Assembly: GCA_903858935.1 (NCBI GenBank)
Contig: CAIOKO010000070.1
Coordinates: forward strand, 14,003 to 78,002
Source: an uncultured Schlesneria sp.
GTDB lineage: Bacteria; Planctomycetota; Planctomycetia; Planctomycetales; Planctomycetaceae
Direction: 5' to 3'
DNA length: 64,000 nucleotides
Below, in pieces: positions 4,419-58,104 of the stretch (its first letter is position 1; every line of letters starts with the position of its first letter). The notes below the pieces were generated by a model. That model was not told the DNA's origin. It did no database searches and saw only the letters and a program-made list of their open reading frames with translations. The position numbers and the translations under genes were made by a program.

Positions 4419-4591
4419 CCAAAGTCGCCATCATCGCTCTGCGTGATAAGCATTGTTCGAGAACCAGGCGAATATCAATCCGCGTGTCAGCAAATCAGAA
4501 ATTCAAACGACGTATCTGTCCCGATGCCGAGGCAACGTTTGAATCGTTTTCGACACATGCTCATCACGCGGAACGATGATGGTGACTTTGG
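4419..4591. repeat. REPIN-like element copy 2 (opposite orientation to copies 1 and 3)
   Basis: Arms 4419-4453 (ccaaagtcgccatcatcgctctgcgtgataagcat) and 4557-4591 (atgctcatcacgcggaacgatgatggtgactttgg); core aligns to the reverse complement of the copy-1 core. Confidence 0.87.
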
Positions 4592-21401: not shown

Positions 21402-22082
21402 ATGTTTAAACTCAATGATGTCGTTCCATGGGGTCGTTCTCTGGATGAATACCAGCGCATGTTTGCCCTGACGGGTGCAGATCTGTGCCGTCGTACCCTG
21501 GGTTGTGCGGATGGACCGGCGAGCTTCAACGCCGAGGCGACGGCAGTTGGTTGTTCAATCGTCTCGTGCGATCCTCTTTATCGGTTTCGCGGCGACGAGA
21601 TTAGAAATCGGATCGATCAGACTTTTCTGACGGTGATGGAACAAACCCGAAAGAACGCTGACGAATTTGTGTGGACGTCCGACCTCCCTGACGTCGAAGC
21701 ACTCGGACAGCGACGAATGTCGACCATGATGACGTTTCTCAATGATTACGATGCAGGGAAGGCTTCTGACCGGTACGTGGATGCCGAACTTCCTCATTTG
21801 CCATTCGCCGACAACAGCTTTGAGATTGCCGTCTGCTCGCACTTTCTCTTTCTTTACAGCGAACATCTCTCCGAAGGATTCCACGTTGAATCGATCCTGG
21901 AACTTTGCCGAGTGAGCCAGGAAGTCCGCATTTTTCCACTGCTCAAGCTTGGCGGCCTTCCGTCTCAACATCTTCCCGCCGTCACGAATCAACTGCGAGA
22001 GACAGGGCTCAATTTCGAAATCAAGAAAGTTGACTACGAGTTTCAGCGTGGCGGAAATGAAATGATGCACGTGTGGCATTGA
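21402..22082 (+). CDS. Class I SAM-dependent methyltransferase
   Basis: VVPWGRSLDEYQRMF, LGCADGPASFNAE, LPFADNSFEIAVCSHFLF. Confidence 0.88.
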   Translation: MFKLNDVVPWGRSLDEYQRMFALTGADLCRRTLGCADGPASFNAEATAVGCSIVSCDPLYRFRGDEIRNRIDQTFLTVMEQTRKNADEFVWTSDLPDVEALGQRRMSTMMTFLNDYDAGKASDRYVDAELPHLPFADNSFEIAVCSHFLFLYSEHLSEGFHVESILELCRVSQEVRIFPLLKLGGLPSQHLPAVTNQLRETGLNFEIKKVDYEFQRGGNEMMHVWH

Positions 22083-22187
22083 TGGATTTGCGAAATATTA
22101 CGAACACGTCGCACATGCTTTTCGAGGATCGACTCTTCGACCGGAGTTAACCTATTAATCCCTTCGCCAGCATCGAAACACGTTCGG

Positions 22188-47205: not shown

Positions 47206-48597
47206 TCAGAAGTCAGCACTTTTGGGAGTTCGCGGGAACGGAATGCAATCACGGATGTTCGTCATTCCGGTAACAAGCTGCACCGTCCGTTCAAGTCCCA
47301 GTCCAAAGCCGCTGTGCGGGACGGTTCCGTATTGACGGAGTTCGAGATACCACCAGTAGTCTTCGGGAACAAGTCCGCATTCTTTCATCCGGTCAATAAG
47401 AACGTCATGCCGTTCTTCTCGCTGACTGCCACCGATGATTTCGCCGATACGAGGGACCAGAACATCCATCGCTCGAACTGTTTTGCCATCTTCATTACAG
47501 CGCATGTAGAACGACTTAATCGCCCGAGGGTAGTCGGTCAGAATCACCGGTTGTTTGAAATGTTGTTCCGTTAGAAAGCGTTCATGTTCCGACTGCAGGT
47601 CGTGGCCCCAGGCGACCGGGTATTCAAACTTATGCCCTGATGTCTCAAGGATTTTGACCGCATCAGTATACGTCAGGCGAATGAAGTCGTGCTCGACGAT
47701 GTTTTGTAATGAAGCCAGTAATGTCGGCTCGATCCGTTCATTGAAGAATTCAAGGTCCTCCGAGCAACGATTCAGAACATCTTTCACGATCGTGCGGACG
47801 AACGATTCGGCCAGGTCCATATTGTCTTCGAGTTCGTAGAAGGGCATTTCGGGTTCGACCATCCAGAATTCAGCCAGGTGCCTTGTCGTGTTCGAGTTTT
47901 CCGCTCGAAACGTAGGACCAAAGGTATAAACATCACCCACGGCCGTCGCGAAGATTTCCCCTTCAAGTTGACCACTGACCGTCAGCCCCGCCTTTTTTCC
48001 AAAGAAGTCGTGAGAATAATCAAGAGGTCCTTTGCTTTGTTGAAGTTTTGCCAGGTCAAGCGTCGTGACCTGAAACACCTGCCCGGCCCCTTCACAATCG
48101 CTGGTCGTAATAATGGGGGTCTGGACATAGAGGAATCCGCGGGCCTGAAAGAAATTATGGATCGCTGAGCAAAGAGCGTTTCGGATTCGTGCAATGGCAC
48201 CAAACGTGTTTGTTCGAGGTCTGAGATGTGCCTTCTCGCGAAGGAATTCGAAGCTGTGCCCTTTTTTTTGCAAAGGATAAGTTAAGGGATCGGCGGTACC
48301 GAGGACTTTCAAGGACTGGGCATGAACCTCAACCCGCTGGCCCTTACCAAGCGATTCCTTGATTTCGCCGACAACCGCGACACTGGCACCCGTCGAAATC
48401 TGCTTAATCAGTGAGGCGTAATCGGGAATTTTGGCGTCCACGACGATCTGCACGTTCTTCATGCAACTGCCATCGTTGATTTCAAGAAATGCGAAGTCCT
48501 GCTTCGATTCTCGCTTGGTACGGACCCATCCACGCACATCGACTGTCGTCCCCGGCTGACCGGCTTTTAATATCTGAGCAACTCGAGTAAGCGACAT
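47206..48597 (-). CDS. asnS: Asparagine--tRNA ligase
   Basis: [46 protein letters not shown]. Confidence 0.98.
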
Positions 48598-48865
48598 AAT
48601 GCCAATCCGTGGAGAAATACTGATCGTTCAATGGGCGCCGAATGGACGGAGCGAAAAGTCGAAGCAGGCAAGTCAAGGGAAGTTAGCCATCGGCTGGCCT
48701 TGATGTTCTTTTCTTTCTGGCATTCAGGCATGTTGATGTAGATATACCCGAATCGTCCGCGATCGAAAAGAAGTGTTTGAACGACCCGTTCGAAAGTGGC
48801 TGTAAGAAAACGGCATCAGTCACAACTGCCTGCATGTCGATGCGATCATCTGTCAAAGAATGAAG

Positions 48866-48896
48866 ACGGCCCCCGAAAGAATTCGGAGGCCGCCGT
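48866..48896 (-). terminator. Probable terminator hairpin downstream of the Cys-rich gene
   Basis: cggcc-cccgaa-aga-attcgga-ggccg imperfect GC stem ~60 bp after the stop. Confidence 0.45.
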
Positions 48897-48953
48897 TTCG
48901 TTGTAGTATGTCATCTCAGGGTGTCTGAGATGGTTTGTCTTTCATTCGCTGAA

Positions 48954-50237
48954 TCAGATCCGCATTCCGAGGAGGGTCGACAGGTGGCCCTTGCGGGTCG
49001 ATCCGGTCTTTTCCATTGGAGGAACTGGAGCTGGCGAAGCTGGTTCAACAACTGGAGCAACCGAAGGAGCACAGCCAGTGCTGTTGCATCCGCTTGAGCT
49101 GCATCCGGTTGAGCAGCAGCTGTCGCAGTTGCCATCTACGATATCGTATCCGCACAAGCGAAGAGCTTGTTCGGCTTGGCGTCGGACGCCACGATCGCAG
49201 TCACCAAGAGCACAGGTCAAGGCGGCTACGACTTCTGGGCAGCAGCAGCAGTTCGCACGAATCTGATCACCAATCTTATCGGCAGCAGTGCTGCGAACTC
49301 GTTCATCAGCATCGTTCAATCCGTAGATGAACGCTGACATGATTTCTGGGTTGCAGATGCAGTCATATCGGTTACCGAGTTTGCGAAGAGCAGCAGCTCG
49401 TTGACGAGCATAGCAAGCGGTTTGCGATGTGTAGATCAACTTGGCGATATCGCAAGCATTCGCATTGCAGCATCGTGTTTCAACTGGAGGTACACAAGTC
49501 GCTGCGGGAGCACCGCAGCTTGGATCACTTGGAGCACCACAAGTTGGAGCACAAGCTGAAGCACAGTTGTGCTTAGCGAACAGACCCTTCAGAAATCCAC
49601 AGCCCAACAGGCTGCCATGTGATTTCGTCCCACAGGTCGTAGCTGGTGTGCAGCTCGTTGCAGGAGCAGCACAAGCTGGAGCACAACCGTTTCCGCCACC
49701 GGTGCCGCAAGCGGCAGCAGGAGCAGCACAAGCTGGAGCACAGCCGTTTCCGCCACCGTTACCGCAAGCGGCAGCAGGAGCAGCACAAGCTGGAGCACAG
49801 CTGCCAGCACCAGCACCAGCACCAACACAGTTGGCAGCAGGAGCAGCACATCCAGGAGCACAGCTGTTACCTGAACCGCAGAGTGACGCAGGAGCGGCAC
49901 AAGCGGGAGCACAACCATTTCCTGAACCACAAGCAGCAGGAGCGGCACAACCATTGCCACTGTTTCCGCAAGCACTGCCTGTGTGACCACATGCACCTGG
50001 ACCACATGAGTCACAGCATGGTGGCTTAATATCCGAACATTTTCTTTGATACGTGTGAACCGTTGGACCGCAAGGTCGAACGATTACGGGTTTACAACAG
50101 GCTGGCTGCGTCGTCGCGGCACAACCACAACTCTTGGCAGCACCACAGGCTCCAGTGAGACCACAGAAACCAGCGTCGGCCAGATTAGCCATGCTCATGG
50201 CGGCGAGCACAGCACCACAGAACTTGATCCATCGCAT
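48954..50237 (-). CDS. Secreted cysteine-rich protein with CAPACAAP repeats and C-terminal HEAT-like repeats
   Basis: Signal peptide MRWIKF…ADA; 57 Cys in 427 aa (hand count); LNDADERVRSTAA and LGDCDRGVRRQAEQAL; GAAGGAG RBS. Confidence 0.88.
   Translation of the reverse strand: MRWIKFCGAVLAAMSMANLADAGFCGLTGACGAAKSCGCAATTQPACCKPVIVRPCGPTVHTYQRKCSDIKPPCCDSCGPGACGHTGSACGNSGNGCAAPAACGSGNGCAPACAAPASLCGSGNSCAPGCAAPAANCVGAGAGAGSCAPACAAPAAACGNGGGNGCAPACAAPAAACGTGGGNGCAPACAAPATSCTPATTCGTKSHGSLLGCGFLKGLFAKHNCASACAPTCGAPSDPSCGAPAATCVPPVETRCCNANACDIAKLIYTSQTACYARQRAAALRKLGNRYDCICNPEIMSAFIYGLNDADERVRSTAADKIGDQIRANCCCCPEVVAALTCALGDCDRGVRRQAEQALRLCGYDIVDGNCDSCCSTGCSSSGCNSTGCAPSVAPVVEPASPAPVPPMEKTGSTRKGHLSTLLGMRI
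49662..49800 (-). repeat. Intragenic 57-bp tandem repeat (19 aa unit CAPACAAPAAACG[NT]GGGNG)
   Basis: gcaggagcagcacaagctggagcaca recurs at 57-bp spacing, with more degenerate units flanking. Confidence 0.85.
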
Positions 50238-50939
50238 AAGACAACGTCTCCTTCCCTTGGGATTCTCAAAACAAATGAGTCTTCGCTGACTCATTTCCGA
50301 CCGGGATTGTGAGCCTAGGAACCCCAGGCGGCGCACTCCGAAGTCCTTGGAGGATGCAAACCGCCCGCGACGCGCGTCGCAGTTCTTTCGACTTTGTCGA
50401 AATTCAATTCCCGGTCGAGCTAATCGTCGACAAACGCACTCTCCATTTAAAATCTATGCAACAGCCGAAACCGACTGCCGCCCCCCTCACAGCCCACGCT
50501 ACGTTCGTTTCATTTCATTGCTATGAACTTCGCTACATGCGGGTCTGGACATTGGATCGGCGGTGTAACCAGCAGCTCTTGAATATCACAAGCTGTTATT
50601 TTTCAAGGAGTTGGCGTCATTTTTGATCGCGGTTATAATGCCTGTAGCGGTCAGTCAAAATGGACGTGACTTTAACGCCGTCAAAGTCAACGCTTTTTCA
50701 AAACAAGCTTCACAATAGGTAAAATATTTCTACTTTGGTAAGATATGTGAGTTTGTTTTGCCTATACGGATTGTTCCCAAAACGACGAGGCTAAACTGCC
50801 ATGCCCGGTAGCGAGTGGAGCGAACATGCGGGTCGTGTAGCGGATCTTCTCACGAGACTGTACCCTGAAAGGCTTTGACGGTCGGTGAGATACGCCATTT
50901 CTGAATTGGTTCTTTGACCAAATCCTTAAGACACACGCC

Positions 50940-53570
50940 ATGGGTCTCAATTCATTACGGATACAAACCTGTTTTCATTTCTCCGTTGCATTCGCGATTG
51001 CAATGTTCGGGATGAAATCGTCGTCGTTGGCCCAGACGGAACAGACTGAGACGGTGGTCAACAATTTACCAACCGTCGAATCGACTCCCTCGAATGATTT
51101 TCAATTCTCTGTGGTGCGGCTTTCCACGGGAGGAAGCTACGTTTACGTACCCGAGAAATGGGGCGAACTTCACTTCAGCATTGTGAACGCCCGCGAAGTA
51201 CCTCGCGAAATGATTTGCGCAACGTCTTTCGACGAACAACCCCAGTTGCAGTTCGGCCGGCGGATTTGGGTTCCTGCGAAATCGGTTTTACGGATTTCGC
51301 ATCCGATTGTAATCCCCAAATATGATGAAAGTCGAGGACGCGTATTGAACTTGCATACGGTGGTACTCGACGCTTCGGAGAAAGACGAAGTCTTTTTAAA
51401 GAACGATTCTGGACAGAATCTTCACGACGGGGCATTGGTTATCACGCGTTCTCCACAGATTACCGGCCTGGTCAATTCGCTCGGAGAAGCGAATGGTCAG
51501 TTGCCGGACGCCGTTTCAGAATTGATCCAGGCCGGCCGAACCAGTCAAAAATTGACAAGTCAAGTTGTGTCGCTGTACGACCAGTTTCTTCCAGCCGACG
51601 CAAGTGGCCTGCATTCGTACGACCAGATCGTGATCGCAGACAATCGGATCACAAACGACTTTGCCGCACTGGGGGCTTTGCGTCACTGGCTTCATGCGGG
51701 TGGACATCTCTGGGTGATGCTCGATCGAGCCGACCCCATCGTACTTGAGCGACTGTTGGGCGACGAATTTACCGGACAGGTTTTGGATCGGGTCAGACTG
51801 ACATCCGTACGAGTAGATCGAGCTCCGACGTTAACCGATGTTGATGGGATGACCGGAGAGGTTGTCGAATACGAAGAACCGGTTGATTTAGTACGCATGG
51901 TCTCTTCAAATCTGGACGTCCTGTATCGGGTCAATGGCTGGCCTGCCCTGACGACAATAGCGGTTGGAGAAGGCAAGGTTTTTATTACGACTTTGGGTCC
52001 CCACGGATGGATGAAGCCGACCCCGCCCAATGCGAAACAATCGTCTGATCCATCGAAGACGTCTGATTACACTGCCACCGGGCCGATGAACGACTTTGCG
52101 ACGGAGTTCTTCAGTCAGCGAGAACCCGAATTGCTGCCGCTGACTTCGCTCGAACCTCAAGTTCGGGATTACATTGGATATTCGATCCCCTCGTGGAACA
52201 TGATCGTTGGCACACTTTTTGGTTTCGCCACATTTCTCTTTGCCATCGGAATTCTGCTGCTGCGTATTGGCCGACTTGAGCATCTCGGTTGGATTGGATC
52301 GTTGATGGCGATTGCGGTGAGCGTTCTTTTGCTATCGGTTGGCCGTTCTTACCGGCATGGAATCCCTGGAACCGTAGCCAGTGTCCAGCTGGTTCAGGCC
52401 ATCAAGGGTACGGACGATACCCGAACACAAGGCCTGGTCGCTGTCTACCAGCCGGAAGGGACGCGTTCGAAAATCAAAGTCAACGGCGGAGGCCGGATGA
52501 TGCCCGATATGACCGGTCTCGAAAACGCAACTCGCCGAATGGTTTCGACCGATCTTGGGGCGTGGTATTGGGAAAACCTGGCTCAGCCCGCCGGGCTGAG
52601 AGCCACTGAATTCACCCGGGCAGAAACCGTCATGGATCGGATCGAGGCCCATGCAACGTTTGATGGCAACGGTCTCGTCGGGACGTACTCCGGTGGTCTT
52701 GCCGCAGGAACCGATGCACTGATCGCGACACGCAGCGGCCGCCTCGCAGTGACATTTGACGGTCCTGGAAGATTCGTCGCCCGGGCCAATGATGTGTTCG
52801 AGAAAGATCAGTATCTGAATGCTGATCTGGTCAGCGATGAACAGGATCGACGTCGACGGACTTTTGAAAAGCTTCTGGCTCATCCTAAACGGACAGAATA
52901 TCCCGTTAAACCACAATTGATGTTCTGGTCTGATCAGTGGGAACATGGGTTTGAATTTGGGGACGGACTGAAAAGACAGGGATCAACGCTTGTCGCAGTT
53001 CCCCTGAACTTCGACCGGCCGGTAAATGGGACGAAGTTTTTGATTCCTTCGCCATTACTCACCTATCGAAATCGGACTCAACCCGATGGGGAACCCAGTT
53101 CGACGTTGTGGAACTATGGACGGAAGGAATGGCATGAACGTTCATCACCAGGTATCGCCTGGTTGAGATTTCAAATTCCCAGGGAACTTCTGCCGCTGAC
53201 CGCAAACCAGGCGCGGATTGATCTTACGGTGACCGGGCCAATCGGCCGCGTCGAAATTATGGGACTCAAAAACGGCAAAGTGATCAGTCTCCGAACAGTC
53301 ATGGACCCCGTTGGGGACTTGTCGATCGACGTGAACGACTCCGAGGCCCTTTCGATCGACGAGGATGGAGGGTTATCGCTGGGACTCTACGCCGGCGATC
53401 CAAATCGTCCCGAGTTGACTCATTCCGCCGGAAAACCTGCAGTGAATGCGACCGGCCAGGCCGCTAACGACGCGAGTCGAAATACAAAAGTGAACTACTG
53501 GCGAATCGAGTCGCTGACAATGCAACTTTGGGTGACGGCAACTGAACCGACCGCGAGAGCTGAAAAATGA
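50940..53570 (+). CDS. Large membrane-anchored hypothetical protein associated with ABC transporter
   Basis: 876-aa ORF with signal-like N-terminus and two central TM helices; ATGA overlap with the ABC ATPase; start uncertain. Confidence 0.8.
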   Translation: MGLNSLRIQTCFHFSVAFAIAMFGMKSSSLAQTEQTETVVNNLPTVESTPSNDFQFSVVRLSTGGSYVYVPEKWGELHFSIVNAREVPREMICATSFDEQPQLQFGRRIWVPAKSVLRISHPIVIPKYDESRGRVLNLHTVVLDASEKDEVFLKNDSGQNLHDGALVITRSPQITGLVNSLGEANGQLPDAVSELIQAGRTSQKLTSQVVSLYDQFLPADASGLHSYDQIVIADNRITNDFAALGALRHWLHAGGHLWVMLDRADPIVLERLLGDEFTGQVLDRVRLTSVRVDRAPTLTDVDGMTGEVVEYEEPVDLVRMVSSNLDVLYRVNGWPALTTIAVGEGKVFITTLGPHGWMKPTPPNAKQSSDPSKTSDYTATGPMNDFATEFFSQREPELLPLTSLEPQVRDYIGYSIPSWNMIVGTLFGFATFLFAIGILLLRIGRLEHLGWIGSLMAIAVSVLLLSVGRSYRHGIPGTVASVQLVQAIKGTDDTRTQGLVAVYQPEGTRSKIKVNGGGRMMPDMTGLENATRRMVSTDLGAWYWENLAQPAGLRATEFTRAETVMDRIEAHATFDGNGLVGTYSGGLAAGTDALIATRSGRLAVTFDGPGRFVARANDVFEKDQYLNADLVSDEQDRRRRTFEKLLAHPKRTEYPVKPQLMFWSDQWEHGFEFGDGLKRQGSTLVAVPLNFDRPVNGTKFLIPSPLLTYRNRTQPDGEPSSTLWNYGRKEWHERSSPGIAWLRFQIPRELLPLTANQARIDLTVTGPIGRVEIMGLKNGKVISLRTVMDPVGDLSIDVNDSEALSIDEDGGLSLGLYAGDPNRPELTHSAGKPAVNATGQAANDASRNTKVNYWRIESLTMQLWVTATEPTARAEK

Positions 53571-54592
53571 CAACTGACCAACCGCGTAAGACGGCGACAG
53601 ATATTCCGGTCGTGGTGTTGGAGCATCTGACAAAGCAATATGGTTCCTTCACAGCTCTGAATGATTTAACACTGACGTTAAATGCAGGTCAGATTCTGGG
53701 CCTGATCGGGCCGAACGGCGCAGGAAAGACAACCGCCATCAAGATTCTGGTCGGTTTGATCCGCCCCACCTCAGGGACGGCAAAAATCGATGGAGTCGAT
53801 TGCGTTAGTGACTCGGCCAGAATCAAACGCCTGGTCGGATACATGCCGGACACGTTTGGTTCTTACGACAATATGCGGGTTCGTGAATATCTGGATTTTT
53901 TCGGAGCAACATTCGGAATCGCACCTCGCGCCCGGGCCAAACGAATCGGTGAGGTCATGGAGACGACCGGCACGGAATACATGAAAGATCGTTTCGTGGA
54001 AAGCCTCAGCCACGGGATGCAGCAACGAGTCGGTCTGGCTCGCACATTATTACACGACCCCAAGGTGCTGATTCTTGACGAACCCGTCAACGGACTTGAT
54101 CCCCAGGCTCGAATCGAAATGCGAGACCTTCTGATCCAACTCGCAAAACGAGGAAAGACGCTGCTTGTCACAAGCCACATCCTGCCAGAATTGACTCGAA
54201 TCTGTGATCGCGTCGCCATCATGACTCACGGCAAATTACGAGCCTTCGGGACGGTCGAAGAAATCGGACGTCAGGTCAGCCAGCAGCGAACAATCGAATC
54301 ACACCTTGTTTCAGCCGATCAGGTCTCGATCGCCGCGAACATTATCCGACAAGCGATCGAACCTGGAGCCGATGTCGTAGAAGCTCCGGCGGAAGCAATC
54401 GTACGCTTCCGAACGGCTCGACCTGAATCCGAACTTGGCGAAGTCCTCGCTCAATTGATTCAAAAAGGAATCCGGGTCACGCAATTCCGCGAAGTACAAA
54501 CCGACCTTGAAGAAGCGTTCATGTCGTTCACAAGGCCTCAGCAGGGAATTGTCGCCACACCCGTCCCAGCGGGAGGTCAAACCCATGCTTAA
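53567..54592 (+). CDS. ABC transporter ATP-binding protein (ABC-2 exporter type)
   Basis: GPNGAGKTT, LSHGMQQR, LILDEP. Confidence 0.95.
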   Translation: MTTDQPRKTATDIPVVVLEHLTKQYGSFTALNDLTLTLNAGQILGLIGPNGAGKTTAIKILVGLIRPTSGTAKIDGVDCVSDSARIKRLVGYMPDTFGSYDNMRVREYLDFFGATFGIAPRARAKRIGEVMETTGTEYMKDRFVESLSHGMQQRVGLARTLLHDPKVLILDEPVNGLDPQARIEMRDLLIQLAKRGKTLLVTSHILPELTRICDRVAIMTHGKLRAFGTVEEIGRQVSQQRTIESHLVSADQVSIAANIIRQAIEPGADVVEAPAEAIVRFRTARPESELGEVLAQLIQKGIRVTQFREVQTDLEEAFMSFTRPQQGIVATPVPAGGQTHA

Positions 54593-56243
54593 GGCGATGG
54601 TAAAGCGAGAACTGACGACGCTGATGCGGCGACGCAGAATGATGGCGCTGCAATGCGGACTTGTTGCTTTATTCGCGGTCCTGGTCGCGATTCGATGGCC
54701 GACCGATGCTCGCATGGCGTTAACGGGAAGTCGTTCACAGCAGGTCTTTCAGCTTTTCGGATACGGATTGCTGGCGACGCTCCTGCTCATCATGCCTGTT
54801 TTTCCCGCGACGAGCATCGTCCGGGAAAAAAAACAGGGAACATTGGCTTTACTGTTGAACACTCCGCTTGGTCCGTGGCGGATTTTTTTCGGCAAGCTGA
54901 CGGCGGTGCTCGCACTTTCGGGGATCATTCTCGTAATGAGCCTTCCTGCTGCAAGCGCCTGCTATGCAATGGGTGGGCTGTCGCTCTATGACGATATAGC
55001 AAAGGTCTATCAAGTCCTGATCGTCGCGGCCCTGGAATACGCCGTCCTGGGACTGCTCGTGAGTACGTATTCGAATTCGATCGATTCGGCCGTACGGTTA
55101 ACCTATGGACTGGTCCTCGGACTCAGCGTTATGACTCTTGGTCCACACTATTTCTTTCAGGGGACAAAAGGATATCTGGCAGAGATTGGTGACGTTCTCT
55201 ATTCGCTTTCACCATTCGCAGCCATGATGTCGTTAACGGGTGTCGGTGATGTCGGAAGCAAAGGGTTAATCACGAAAACCGAATTGCTTGGACGATTCAC
55301 CGTGACGTCGCTGATTGTGTCGGTGATCGCCAGCATCTGGTCAGTCTCACGCTTAAATCACACGATTTTCGACCAGGCCCGGTCCCAGGGAACGATTAGT
55401 GATGATCAAACTCAGTCGGTGCGATTTTTTCGTCGGCTTTTCTTTCTGGTCGACCCTCAACGACGTTCGAGTAACATTTCTTCCTTCGCCAATCCCATTA
55501 CCGTAAAGGAGTTCCGCTGTCGACGATTCGGGCGACTCCATTGGCTGTTGAGGCTGGTTGCCATATGCGCTGTTCTGTCACTCGGCCTGACGTATGCAAC
55601 AACGGCAGGAACGTTCGATTGGGGTGTGGAAACGATCGGCGGGATCATGGTCGTGATGCAGGTGGCACTACTGGCACTGATCACCCCCAGTCTTTCTGCC
55701 GGACTGTTGAGCAGCGAACGCGAAAGCCGGGGCTGGCAACTGCTTCAAACAACTCCGATGTCGATCACGCGCATTGTCTGGGGCAAGTTGTTAAGCGTGA
55801 TTCTGCCACTGATGCTGATTCTGTGTGCCACTCTTCCTGGCTACGTGGTCATGGTCTATATCGAACCGGGAATGAAATTGCAGGTTGAGCGAGTGATTAT
55901 CTGCCTGGCAGCAATGGCGGTTTTCGCGATGTTGTTGAGCGCCGCCGTAGGAAGCTTGTTCAAGCGCACTGCCGCCGCAACGGCAGCGGCTTACGGTGCC
56001 CTGCTGTCGATTTGCGCTCTGCCATTATTGGTCTGGCTGGGGCGAGATGCTCCTTTCGGGCACAAGACCGTCGAAGCGGCACTGTCAGTCAATCCCATCG
56101 CAGCCGCATTATCGGTGATTCGGATGCCCGGTTTTCAGGATTACTCACTGATCCCGGCAAATTGGTGGTTCCTGGGAATTGGATCGATCACTTCTTTATT
56201 GATCCTTCTGGCACAGACCTACCGTATTTCCCGTCCGCAATGA
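54585..56243 (+). CDS. ABC-2 type permease with two tandem membrane domains
   Basis: Repeated A.SI..E…GT..LL..TP motifs (EKKQGTLALLLNTP and ERESRGWQLLQTTP). Confidence 0.9.
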   Translation: MLKAMVKRELTTLMRRRRMMALQCGLVALFAVLVAIRWPTDARMALTGSRSQQVFQLFGYGLLATLLLIMPVFPATSIVREKKQGTLALLLNTPLGPWRIFFGKLTAVLALSGIILVMSLPAASACYAMGGLSLYDDIAKVYQVLIVAALEYAVLGLLVSTYSNSIDSAVRLTYGLVLGLSVMTLGPHYFFQGTKGYLAEIGDVLYSLSPFAAMMSLTGVGDVGSKGLITKTELLGRFTVTSLIVSVIASIWSVSRLNHTIFDQARSQGTISDDQTQSVRFFRRLFFLVDPQRRSSNISSFANPITVKEFRCRRFGRLHWLLRLVAICAVLSLGLTYATTAGTFDWGVETIGGIMVVMQVALLALITPSLSAGLLSSERESRGWQLLQTTPMSITRIVWGKLLSVILPLMLILCATLPGYVVMVYIEPGMKLQVERVIICLAAMAVFAMLLSAAVGSLFKRTAAATAAAYGALLSICALPLLVWLGRDAPFGHKTVEAALSVNPIAAALSVIRMPGFQDYSLIPANWWFLGIGSITSLLILLAQTYRISRPQ

Positions 56244-56319
56244 GCGCCGAAAGGCTCTGTTTTCTGCACGTAGTGACGTTGTGAACGATCGCAATATTTT
56301 TGTCCTGAGATCATCAGCC

Positions 56320-58104
56320 ATGTCGCATCAATCCCTCATTTACCTGATTGTGACCCTTGTCTTATTTTCCGGCGTCAGTCGAGCTGAAATTAAACCGGAT
56401 TTCCTGATGGACTCCGACCCCAAGTTTGATCGCTTGTCGCCAGTCAAGAAATCGATGCCGGAACACATACGGCTTTGGATTGAAGTTCTCGCTCGTCCTG
56501 AGATCGATTATCAGCGGATGGCTGCTGAATCAATCGCTTTTGCACATCAGAAAGGAATCCCGGACTTGATCGAGGCGGTTCCAGCCCTCGAAACGGTTTT
56601 GACCGCTGAGTCGTCCCATCCTTCGGCGCGCTACGCAGCCGCACGGGCACTGATCGTGCTCGAATCGCGCAGTTCGTCTGAAAAACTGTTTGATGTCTCA
56701 CAGAAACATGGTTCGGAACTCAGGCAACTGATCGAACCGGCCTTAGCGGCATGGGATTATCTTCCAATTCGTTCCGTTTGGAAAAAGCGTCTGGAGACCA
56801 GGGAAACCCGGCCGCAAGATTTGATTCTGGCGACTCGCGGAATTCGCCGCGTCCGTGAAACATCGGCGTTGGCCACGTTGCAACAGATGACGCTCAACTT
56901 TATTCAAACACCGGAAATTCGCCTTGAAGCGGCATCAGCTGCCGGGGAGCTGGCCGAAACAGGACTTGAAGCCGATGCCGATCGGCTGGTGCAGGAAACA
57001 CGCACATCTTCGACGATCAATCGTCACTGTGCGCTCCGTTTACTCGCGCGGCATACGAGCGAAACAACACTTAAACTTCTGGCTGAACGCGCAACAGACC
57101 CCGAACCCTCAGTCGCCGCTGCCGCGCTGAAGCGGCTGAACCAGATTGATTCGACTCTCGTACTGCCGTTCGTTGAACTCGCACTACAGAACAAAGATGT
57201 GAACGTTCGCACTCAAGCCGCACTCGCGTATATTAAGCTTCCAACGAAGGACCGAATCCGCACTCTCGCTGAGTTATTGGACGATCCTGTTCCGGATCTG
57301 CGAAGACAAGTCTGCACAGAGCTTTCTCGTATCGCAAAGCAGCCGGAGTTTGAAGAAACGATTCAATCTGCCGCGATGGAAATTCTATCGCGAGATCGTT
57401 GGCGAGGTCAGGAGCAATCCGCGCTGCTGCTCGGCGAATTAGGACACAAACCTTCGTGGAAACGAATGACCGAACTGCTGGAATCATCACGTCCAGAAGT
57501 GATGATCGGGTCGGCCTGGGGCCTGCGTAAAATCGCAGATCCCGAGTCGATTCCAGCGATCGTTGACAAAATTCGGCGGCAGACCGAGGTCAGAAAGACA
57601 AATCAGTCCGCTGAGATCGACCTTCAAGTTGCCCATCTTTTTGAAGCATGCGCTCGAATGCTGGCGAAAGAAGCCGAGCCTGAGATGTTAGTTTACGTTC
57701 CCAAAAACCTGATGAATGGAGAACGTTCTCGTTGCTGCGCCATTTGGGCATTGGGGTGGTTGTACGCCGGCAAACCAGATCGATCGATTGGGCGTCAACT
57801 GATCGAGCGTGTGAACGATAATTCGATGCCTCCGGTCGAAAATCTACTTGTTAAAAGAATTTGTATCGTTTCTCTGGGTCGGATGAAGGCCGTCGATTAC
57901 GCAGCTGAGTTTCGGCAGAAACTGGGAAAAAAGCCGTCAAATGACACGTACTCGTTGACCTTGCAATGGGCACTGACTCAAATGACCGGAGAAGAATTCC
58001 CCGACGTACCTCCCGAATTGGCTGGTATTGGAGGTTGGTTCCTTGATCCAATCCCATCAAAAGTCACATCAGCGAACGATGATCCGGCCAACCTGCAACC
58101 GTAA
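56320..58104 (+). CDS. HEAT repeat protein with N-terminal signal peptide
   Basis: Multiple HEAT-like units (R.AAARAL, D.EP.V..AAL, LLDDP.PD.RR, SAWGL). Confidence 0.82.
   Translation: MSHQSLIYLIVTLVLFSGVSRAEIKPDFLMDSDPKFDRLSPVKKSMPEHIRLWIEVLARPEIDYQRMAAESIAFAHQKGIPDLIEAVPALETVLTAESSHPSARYAAARALIVLESRSSSEKLFDVSQKHGSELRQLIEPALAAWDYLPIRSVWKKRLETRETRPQDLILATRGIRRVRETSALATLQQMTLNFIQTPEIRLEAASAAGELAETGLEADADRLVQETRTSSTINRHCALRLLARHTSETTLKLLAERATDPEPSVAAAALKRLNQIDSTLVLPFVELALQNKDVNVRTQAALAYIKLPTKDRIRTLAELLDDPVPDLRRQVCTELSRIAKQPEFEETIQSAAMEILSRDRWRGQEQSALLLGELGHKPSWKRMTELLESSRPEVMIGSAWGLRKIADPESIPAIVDKIRRQTEVRKTNQSAEIDLQVAHLFEACARMLAKEAEPEMLVYVPKNLMNGERSRCCAIWALGWLYAGKPDRSIGRQLIERVNDNSMPPVENLLVKRICIVSLGRMKAVDYAAEFRQKLGKKPSNDTYSLTLQWALTQMTGEEFPDVPPELAGIGGWFLDPIPSKVTSANDDPANLQP

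Follow-up and report, generated by a model that had tools for sequence, protein, structure and literature searches.

The gene at positions 48954-50237 of the window (the whole stretch of 64,000 nucleotides analyzed here, taken from a contig of an uncultured Schlesneria sp.) encodes, on the minus strand, a 427-amino-acid (aa) protein whose best reading, held with somewhat less than even confidence, is that of a thiol/disulfide cross-linking matrix protein of the envelope in Planctomycetaceae. The protein contains 57 Cys (13.3%) together with 81 Ala, 54 Gly, and 34 Pro, and when crude open reading frames (ORFs) of 100 aa or longer are considered across the 7.9-Mb genome, few plausible proteins exceed 12% Cys, this being one of them. 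It appears to be exported, to carry a folded, Cys-studded HEAT head, and to expose a hypervariable, thiol-rich repeat region, and the gene is apparently among the most strongly expressed in its host. An initial annotation of the DNA had already proposed a disulfide-cross-linked envelope or appendage protein, and the ORF, the Cys count, the five CAP[AG]CAAP units (starting at residues 109, 126, 147, 166, and 185), and the CCCC run (residues 330-333) on which it drew were all reproduced here.

Export is suggested by the layout of the N terminus. Residues 1-22 (MRWIKFCGAVLAAMSMANLADA; 50172..50237, minus strand) have the n/h/c arrangement of a signal peptide, with MRWIK followed by FCGAVLAAMSMANL and ADA|G and a predicted cut after A-D-A. 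The layout, in which the initial annotation had also seen a signal peptide, is type I-like by eye and is conserved across the family, with A22 at least 90% conserved and G-[LF] next in most homologues, and AlphaFold places a helix at residues 2-17. The 427-aa protein is therefore probably exported by the Sec pathway, and no twin-arginine motif is present. A bacterial lipoprotein was considered and rejected, as the lipobox [LVI][ASTVI][GAS]C is not matched by the sequence LADAGFC, which has F at position -1, and most homologues have AQAGLFG at the end of the signal with no Cys nearby.

The predicted mature protein begins with a conserved Cys motif (hereafter the N-motif) spanning residues 23-95 (49953..50171, minus strand) that follows the pattern CGAxKSCGCA..QPxCCKPxIxRPC....TYQRxCSxIKPPCC, and K35, P45, C48, P50, P55, Y63, Q64, and R65 within it are invariant in 61 sequences. 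An AlphaFold2 model computed from a 61-sequence alignment has a strand at residues 51-53 (VIV) and a helix at residues 63-70 of this motif, with a predicted local distance difference test score (pLDDT) of about 82. The HEAT domain occupies residues 251-372 (49122..49487, minus strand). Pfam HEAT_2 (PF13646) matches residues 279-360 (E=1e-6, 29.4 bits against a cut-off of 27.7 bits), and the same family is precomputed for most homologues, while a search of the whole protein against NCBIfam gave no match. The domain is modeled with high confidence (pLDDT 93-98 for residues 255-372) as six helices forming three hairpins, so that of the HEAT pair initially annotated the HEAT assignment stands and the number does not, three PBS-type HEAT-like repeats being predicted. 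Foldseek and a profile search of the PDB returned only designed alphaRep/PBS-type HEAT-like repeats (target-normalized TM-score 0.86, root-mean-square deviation 2.0 A, and about 30% identity for an alphaRep match; E down to 1e-21 for the PDB profile). Immediately after the final HEAT helix, the model contains a second strand at residues 365-367 (DIV), and both strands and the N-motif helix recur in a second model, that of a 297-aa homologue.

The Cys residues of the head follow patterns that fit structural disulfides. The HEAT domain carries 13-14 conserved Cys, located at helix ends and in loops, of which C262, C275, C295, C332, and C347 are invariant in a 111-sequence alignment. C335 and C342, which lie two turns apart on the same helix, are mutually exclusive. 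When the presence or absence of each Cys was compared across 163 full-length sequences, the pair that covaried most strongly was C56-C371 (phi 0.61; both present in 139, neither in 11, and discordant in 13), followed by C256-C330 (phi 0.50); these correlations are supportive rather than conclusive, since shared ancestry inflates them. C56 is three residues past the N-motif strand and C371 is four residues past the C-terminal strand. Together, the model and the C56-C371, C256-C330, and C335/C342 patterns suggest that the N-motif is clamped onto a three-repeat HEAT head and that the Cys/Ala/Pro/Gly repeat region between them is probably a disordered, closed loop. The initial annotation had pictured a Cys-rich arm anchored by a HEAT module; the Cys-rich region is indeed present, but it is probably not a free arm, as docking of the N-motif would close it into a loop.

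The repeat region itself (residues 96-250; 49488..49952, minus strand) is a low-complexity sequence with 24 Cys and all five CAP[AG]CAAP units, and pLDDT is below 50 across residues 71-250. At the DNA level, Tandem Repeats Finder reports a repeat at 49660-49801 with a 57-bp period, 2.5 copies, and 96% identity, with 3 mismatches in 57 bases between its two full units. The initial annotation took this tandem to have expanded recently, and the comparison of repeat number between strains that it recommended supports that view. Among 11 variants of at least 90% identity, the N-motif and HEAT domain are essentially identical while loop units have been gained, lost, and converted, giving between 1 and 7 CAPxCAAP units, lengths of 426-449 aa, and 56-61 Cys in total. 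Between genera, the variable region ranges from 32 to 254 aa and the repeat unit is genus-specific (CAPACAAPAAN, CCAPAPKA, CVNGNG, CAPECAAP, and others). A thiol nevertheless recurs every 3-7 residues in the loop, Cys density is held at 10-17%, and the Cys content of the 120 closest homologues is 9-18%. Repeat turnover is thus recent and ongoing, with Cys density preserved.

On the C-terminal side of the HEAT domain, a Cys/Ser/Gly linker of low pLDDT (residues 373-390, SCCSTGCSSSGCNSTGCA; 49068..49121, minus strand) contains the nearly invariant C379 and leads into a Pro-rich spacer and conserved terminal peptide (residues 391-427, ..APVPP..RKGHLSTLLGMRI; 48957..49067, minus strand). P402, P404, P406, and L419 are conserved there, the family consensus is APAPAPP..AYFPxRL...LSxLFGLxx, and a short helix is predicted on the terminal peptide in the model of the 297-aa homologue. 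Within the variable region there is, in addition, a basic-hydrophobic motif, GFLKGLFAKHN (residues 214-224; 49566..49598, minus strand), and other genera have comparable G-L-F or L-F-[KR] motifs in their variable region; such motifs also stand at the mature N terminus (AGLFG) and at the C terminus (LSxLFGL). As a separate observation, G-L-F or L-x-x-L-F-G beside basic residues recurs family-wide at residues 23-26, 214-224, and 415-427 (window positions 50160-50171, 49566-49598, and 48957-48995) and is also found in the small HEAT-less proteins described below; the motif might serve as a docking peptide or, being amphipathic, as an element that binds membranes.

The family to which this protein belongs is nearly universal in Planctomycetaceae. 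A word-indexed search returned at least 256 homologues, from 94% to about 40% identical, and 236 proteins matched at E <=1e-10 among 1.84 billion representatives. The only names that the homologues bear are 'HEAT repeat domain-containing protein' and 'hypothetical protein', so none of them brings with it an established, unrelated function. Named sources include Gimesia algae, Schlesneria, Planctomicrobium, Maioricimonas, and metagenome-assembled genomes (MAGs) of Planctomycetaceae, and the parts occur in a common order: a signal ending in A-x-A and G-L-F, the Cys motif, a Cys-periodic region, the HEAT domain, a Pro stretch, and the terminal peptide. The initial annotation had advised searching beyond the host genome with a family profile; with one built on 61 sequences, 253 of 301 genomes in the GTDB family Planctomycetaceae proved to carry the gene (192 of the 223 high-quality genomes; 78 of 92 genera), usually in one copy. 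The window's genome is a MAG, its gene is best represented in a lake-water metagenome, and the closest named homologue suggests that the genus is probably Schlesneria-like. In the window's own genome, a protein search for paralogues matched the gene itself and nothing else. In a 401-genome sample of the phylum, matches were restricted to members of the family, apart from short generic HEAT hits, and in a 251-genome sample of the class, three genomes of one other family matched weakly (E 1e-11 to 1e-12) over the HEAT part only. These remote relatives (L015:920-1813; L016:727-1950, minus strand; L017:801-1673) are about 290 aa long. They have a hydrophobic segment at the N terminus, CCxxCG, a HEAT domain in which some of the conserved Cys are retained, and a tail that is long and Pro-rich. 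Because they keep the HEAT domain and Pro-rich tail without the N-motif or the Cys/Ala/Pro repeats, this core appears to be the older part, with the clamp motif and Cys loop being likely Planctomycetaceae-specific additions. Domain fusions were also sought in the library of 1.84 billion proteins, where the long hits were uninformative, being generic multi-HEAT proteins whose Cys content is about 0.9%.

Assembled metatranscriptome contigs and codon adaptation both indicate that the gene is very likely highly expressed and its protein abundant. In four permafrost or peat metatranscriptomes, contigs of at least 85% identity, several of them at least 99% identical, span 48902-50294, and they leave the neighboring genes for asparaginyl-tRNA synthetase and fatty-acid hydroxylase, as well as the divergent operon, almost uncovered. 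A homologue of another, probably Planctopirus-like, genus has the same RNA pattern in soil and rhizosphere metatranscriptomes, plus one RNA run labeled as another organism, while a DNA-like run covers its locus evenly. The codon adaptation index (CAI), computed with tuf and rplK/A/J/L as the reference set, is 0.729, which places the gene at the 99.3rd percentile among ORFs of 300 aa or more and is comparable to the values for rplK (0.715), rpoB (0.708), and rpoC (0.755); the HEAT part alone reaches 0.77. The repetitive codon usage noted in the initial annotation is likewise evident, with GCT accounting for 68% of Ala codons compared with 18% genome-wide.

Ranking the ORFs of the genome by Cys content brought up two small repeat-only proteins, both encoded outside the window. 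A 158-aa secreted-type protein (contig C72, about 21629-22105, plus strand) has the family-type signal MKFVWISAAL..AQAGLF, CAPxCAAP-type repeats, and, in its center, the basic motif KLPKLCMPKIR, with no HEAT domain and a CAI of 0.75; its 29 homologues come from metagenomes and Planctomycetaceae MAGs, the one named homologue being from a Planctomycetaceae MAG. A 142-aa secreted-type protein (contig C226, minus strand, reverse-strand offset 9811), which begins CCKPARPVCCKPAR, has Cys/Ala/Pro/Ser repeats, a Pro/Ala/Glu-rich tail, no Pfam hit, and a CAI of 0.77. The genome also encodes three YTV proteins, with 17 YTV repeats in total according to the Pfam model and CAI values of 0.68-0.71. By the features and CAI of the small proteins, the HEAT protein, and the YTV proteins, the genome is predicted to encode a set of exported, codon-adapted, Cys-rich proteins, and the small HEAT-less proteins and YTV proteins are possible partners of the HEAT protein.

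We infer cross-linking, polymerization, and an envelope location for the HEAT protein. In the mechanism that we propose, the signal peptide would be removed and the N-terminal Cys motif would pack on the HEAT domain by beta-strand pairing, with a C56-C371 disulfide probably pinning the motif in place to give a compact, Cys-stapled head. The repeat region of 30-250 residues would then form a flexible, closed thiol loop, and the Pro-rich spacer and the conserved basic-hydrophobic C-terminal peptide would follow. In the periplasm or the wall, the loop thiols would form intermolecular disulfides with other copies, with the small HEAT-less Cys/Ala/Pro proteins, and perhaps with YTV proteins, while the HEAT head would act as a protein-docking module that possibly binds GLF/basic peptides. 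The outcome would be a cystine- and proline-rich matrix. Early chemistry described planctomycete envelopes as protein-dominated and rich in Cys and Pro, with peptidoglycan detected later, and accounts from the 1980s are of a cystine- and proline-rich envelope in Planctomyces-type bacteria that resists sodium dodecyl sulfate. A more far-reaching version, which we regard as rather unlikely, is that the HEAT family and the small HEAT-less proteins constitute the main matrix of this 1980s envelope, assembled by head-to-tail docking and locked by disulfides without DsbA, DsbB, or VKOR. The HEAT groove would in that case bind the conserved GLF/basic peptides at the N terminus, in the loop, and at the C terminus, and loop disulfides would subsequently lock the assembly. 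If the canonical DsbA/DsbB/VKOR pathway plays no part in this locking, the planctomycete periplasm would have to possess a way of cross-linking proteins oxidatively that has yet to be described.

Several results weigh against a cross-linking matrix protein. Both an outer-membrane or cell-surface sorting signal and a peptidoglycan-binding domain are absent from the protein, and we found no proteomic or genetic data for any family member. Expression was read from assembled contigs, which quantify it poorly, even if the contrast with the neighboring genes is consistent. No VKOR, DsbB, or Thioredoxin_4-type DsbA is recognizable in the genome, and the sole DSBA-family protein (C155:79011-79616) starts with MNFTVDVISDVICPWC, lacks a signal peptide, and resembles a cytoplasmic enzyme of the FrnE type, which raises the question of how, or whether, exported Cys-rich proteins become oxidized. 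Mature homologues divide into 66 with an even and 56 with an odd number of Cys, a near-balance indicating that complete intramolecular pairing is not enforced and fitting intermolecular bonds and free or metal-bound thiols equally well. With no recognizable oxidase and no parity bias, a metal- or thiol-based role, of which the initial annotation had named the metal-binding form as its alternative, remains a serious rival, although we judge it somewhat unlikely. The protein would then be a periplasmic thiol buffer, whose reduced Cys loop sequesters Cu, Zn, or Cd or scavenges oxidants and electrophiles and whose HEAT domain serves solubility or docking. Such a role would agree with the failure to detect periplasmic oxidases and the lack of an even-number bias, with the density of Cys in a loop where only small residues surround them, with the Asp or Glu found beside Cys in several genera (CAPECAAPC, CDPGCEAPC), and with a level of expression suited to stoichiometric action. 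What the protein has in common with metallothioneins, including bacterial SmtA/BmtA, is that Cys are dense in a region that forms little secondary structure. However, membership in a metallothionein family was rejected, since Pfam and NCBIfam gave no such match at E up to 10, Cys spacing varies between genera (x3, x5, x6, x7), and this is a 427-aa protein with a folded domain as well as a signal peptide. His is almost absent, no metal-homeostasis gene is linked to the gene in any of four loci, the C56-C371 covariation and C335/C342 swap have the look of constraints imposed by disulfides or by structure, and the Pro-rich spacer and conserved terminal peptides would be left without a role. If a metal or redox buffer were nonetheless the correct reading, the family would represent a new type of exported metallothionein-like protein.

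A further point against the matrix reading is that a subfamily with 3-8% Cys, found among the 236 proteins, keeps the signal peptide, the N-motif, and the HEAT head and ends in a long acidic/Pro tail, implying that the conserved function may lie in the head rather than in the Cys loop. This would suit a periplasmic adaptor or scaffold, in which the head binds a peptide or protein, for example an envelope-biogenesis or appendage-assembly factor, and the loop is a tolerated spacer that evolves rapidly. The head, made up of N-motif and HEAT domain, is invariant beside a loop of very variable length, the remote relatives in another family retain only the HEAT domain and Pro-rich tail, and the nearest folds are peptide- or protein-binding HEAT/armadillo repeats. 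We nevertheless find an adaptor improbable, as expression at the level of ribosomal proteins would be unusual for one, no conserved neighboring gene points to a partner, and the Cys density of the loop is held across genera despite sequence turnover, which argues for selection on the thiols themselves. It is very unlikely that the protein is a component of an external structure, such as stalk fibers, a holdfast, or the fibers of crateriform pits, rather than of the wall proper. The Planctomycetaceae include stalked, rosette-forming Planctomyces-type bacteria, and the confinement of the gene to this family, the strain-level hypervariability of repeats that is typical of exposed proteins, and the high expression would all be in keeping with such a location, but the protein has no signal for outer-membrane translocation or sorting, and neither a pilin-like gene nor one for a secretion system is linked to it.

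The cross-linking matrix reading can be compared with what is known of Cys-rich proteins in planctomycete walls. Wall preparations are reported to be protein-dominated, and those of Rhodopirellula baltica, Gemmata, and Tuwongella were found to contain Cys-rich YTV proteins (PF07639; PMC12673574, PMC8567305); recent reviews name no other Cys-rich planctomycete wall proteins (PMC12673574, PMC8567305, PMC10632474). The HEAT protein resembles YTV proteins in being Cys-rich, planctomycete-specific, apparently exported, and proposed to stiffen the wall via disulfides, and in the window's genome the two have similarly high codon adaptation. It is not itself a YTV protein, as no YTV match was obtained at E up to 10 and phmmer comparison with the genome's own YTV proteins gave negative scores; a relationship between the N-motif (VHTYQR) and YTV repeats was rejected on the basis of Pfam and phmmer as well. 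YTV proteins are class-wide and have neither a HEAT domain nor an Ala/Pro/Gly low-complexity loop, whereas the HEAT family is confined to Planctomycetaceae. The composition of the planctomycete wall has been debated for decades with YTV as the sole named Cys-rich wall proteins, and the HEAT family constitutes a second, unrelated, uncharacterized family of Cys-rich, apparently exported proteins that is near-universal in Planctomycetaceae, single-copy, and apparently strongly expressed. We found no paper on it in the literature. As such, it offers a concrete candidate, genetically tractable in Planctopirus limnophila or Gimesia maris, for how Planctomycetaceae build envelope rigidity, and its architecture, a predicted disulfide-stapled HEAT head closing a hypervariable, thiol-rich loop in an apparently exported protein, is unusual.

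Other Cys-rich systems resemble the HEAT protein in part. In chlamydiae, the exported, Cys-rich proteins OmcB (large) and OmcA (small), the latter a lipoprotein, are thought to replace or reinforce the wall by disulfide cross-linking. They share with the present case the Planctomycetes-Verrucomicrobia-Chlamydiae (PVC) superphylum and a pairing of large (HEAT) and small (158-aa and 142-aa) Cys-rich proteins, a parallel that is one of analogy only. The HEAT protein does not belong to either family, Pfam reporting only HEAT-type families at E up to 10, and it differs in having no lipobox, in its fold of HEAT domain and disordered loop, and in that cross-linking is here a proposal only. The QPACCKP, CCKPV, and KPPCC motifs recall the keratin-associated proteins, as does the idea of a Cys-rich matrix cross-linked by disulfides. 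Membership in that family (Keratin_B2) was rejected with no match at E up to 10 and a likeness limited to short CCKP/QPxCC strings, and the resemblance appears from the sequences to be purely convergent, the HEAT protein being bacterial and apparently exported, with a folded head and repeats that are Ala/Pro/Gly-rich rather than Ser/Gln/Pro-rich. The C-terminal domain, by comparison, is a genuine member of the HEAT_2/alphaRep type, with a score above the cut-off and stacked helical hairpins of about 31 residues, yet the protein as a whole is distinguished by having three repeats only, 13-14 conserved Cys, apparent export, and the N-clamp and Cys loop; ordinary multi-HEAT proteins of planctomycetes have about 0.9% Cys.

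The gene is monocistronic in four genera, with about 700-900 bp of non-coding DNA upstream, and no neighbors are shared among the loci of Gimesia algae, Planctomicrobium SH664, Maioricimonas JC845, and the window. The homologue attributed to Planctopirus limnophila is located at about 3.463 Mb of a 5.42-Mb genome, flanked by a PfkB kinase gene and, downstream, by a gene for a membrane protein. A divergent operon at 50940-58104 (plus strand) in the window encodes an 876-aa membrane protein without a Pfam hit, an ABC ATPase, a large ABC-2 permease, and a 607-aa HEAT_2 protein; a functional tie to this ABC-transporter operon is unsupported, because the neighbors are not conserved, and it is probably unrelated to the Cys-rich gene. 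Two alternative readings of the frame were rejected as well. A longer frame with a GTG start (50336) is unsupported because homologues begin at the methionine of MRWIK, and an ORF on the opposite strand (49441-49986, 181 aa) is a shadow of the repeats, conservation being located in the minus-strand frame.

The signals flanking the coding sequence agree with those initially annotated, a strong ribosome-binding site and a terminator-like hairpin. The 5' untranslated leader (50238..50297, minus strand) carries a stem-loop, AAATGAGTC...GACTCATTT, and a Shine-Dalgarno region, CCCAAGGGAAGGAGACG, with AAGGAG 10 nt upstream of the ATG. The Shine-Dalgarno block is kept in five homologous loci of other genera, each of which also has a leader hairpin 30-60 nt upstream, although the hairpin sequences are unrelated. 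Downstream of the gene, an intrinsic-terminator-like hairpin (48865..48894, minus strand) has a 13-bp stem with 9 G-C pairs followed by TTCATTCTTT. The ends of the RNA contigs match the terminator hairpin, at 48902, and the leader hairpin, with one contig reaching 50294. Rfam identified no structured RNA in 48500-51000 at E up to 0.1, and in particular there is no Acido-Lenti-1 motif downstream of the window's gene. Just downstream of the other-genus homologue, two inverted copies of this Rfam RNA motif are present (L006:4308-4352, minus strand, and 4458-4502, plus strand), at a place where one run shows a peak of depth. Upstream of the same homologue, summed contig depth rises to about 279 in one run over L006:1435-1547, a segment that has no tRNA or Rfam match and could be a repeated element or a small RNA.

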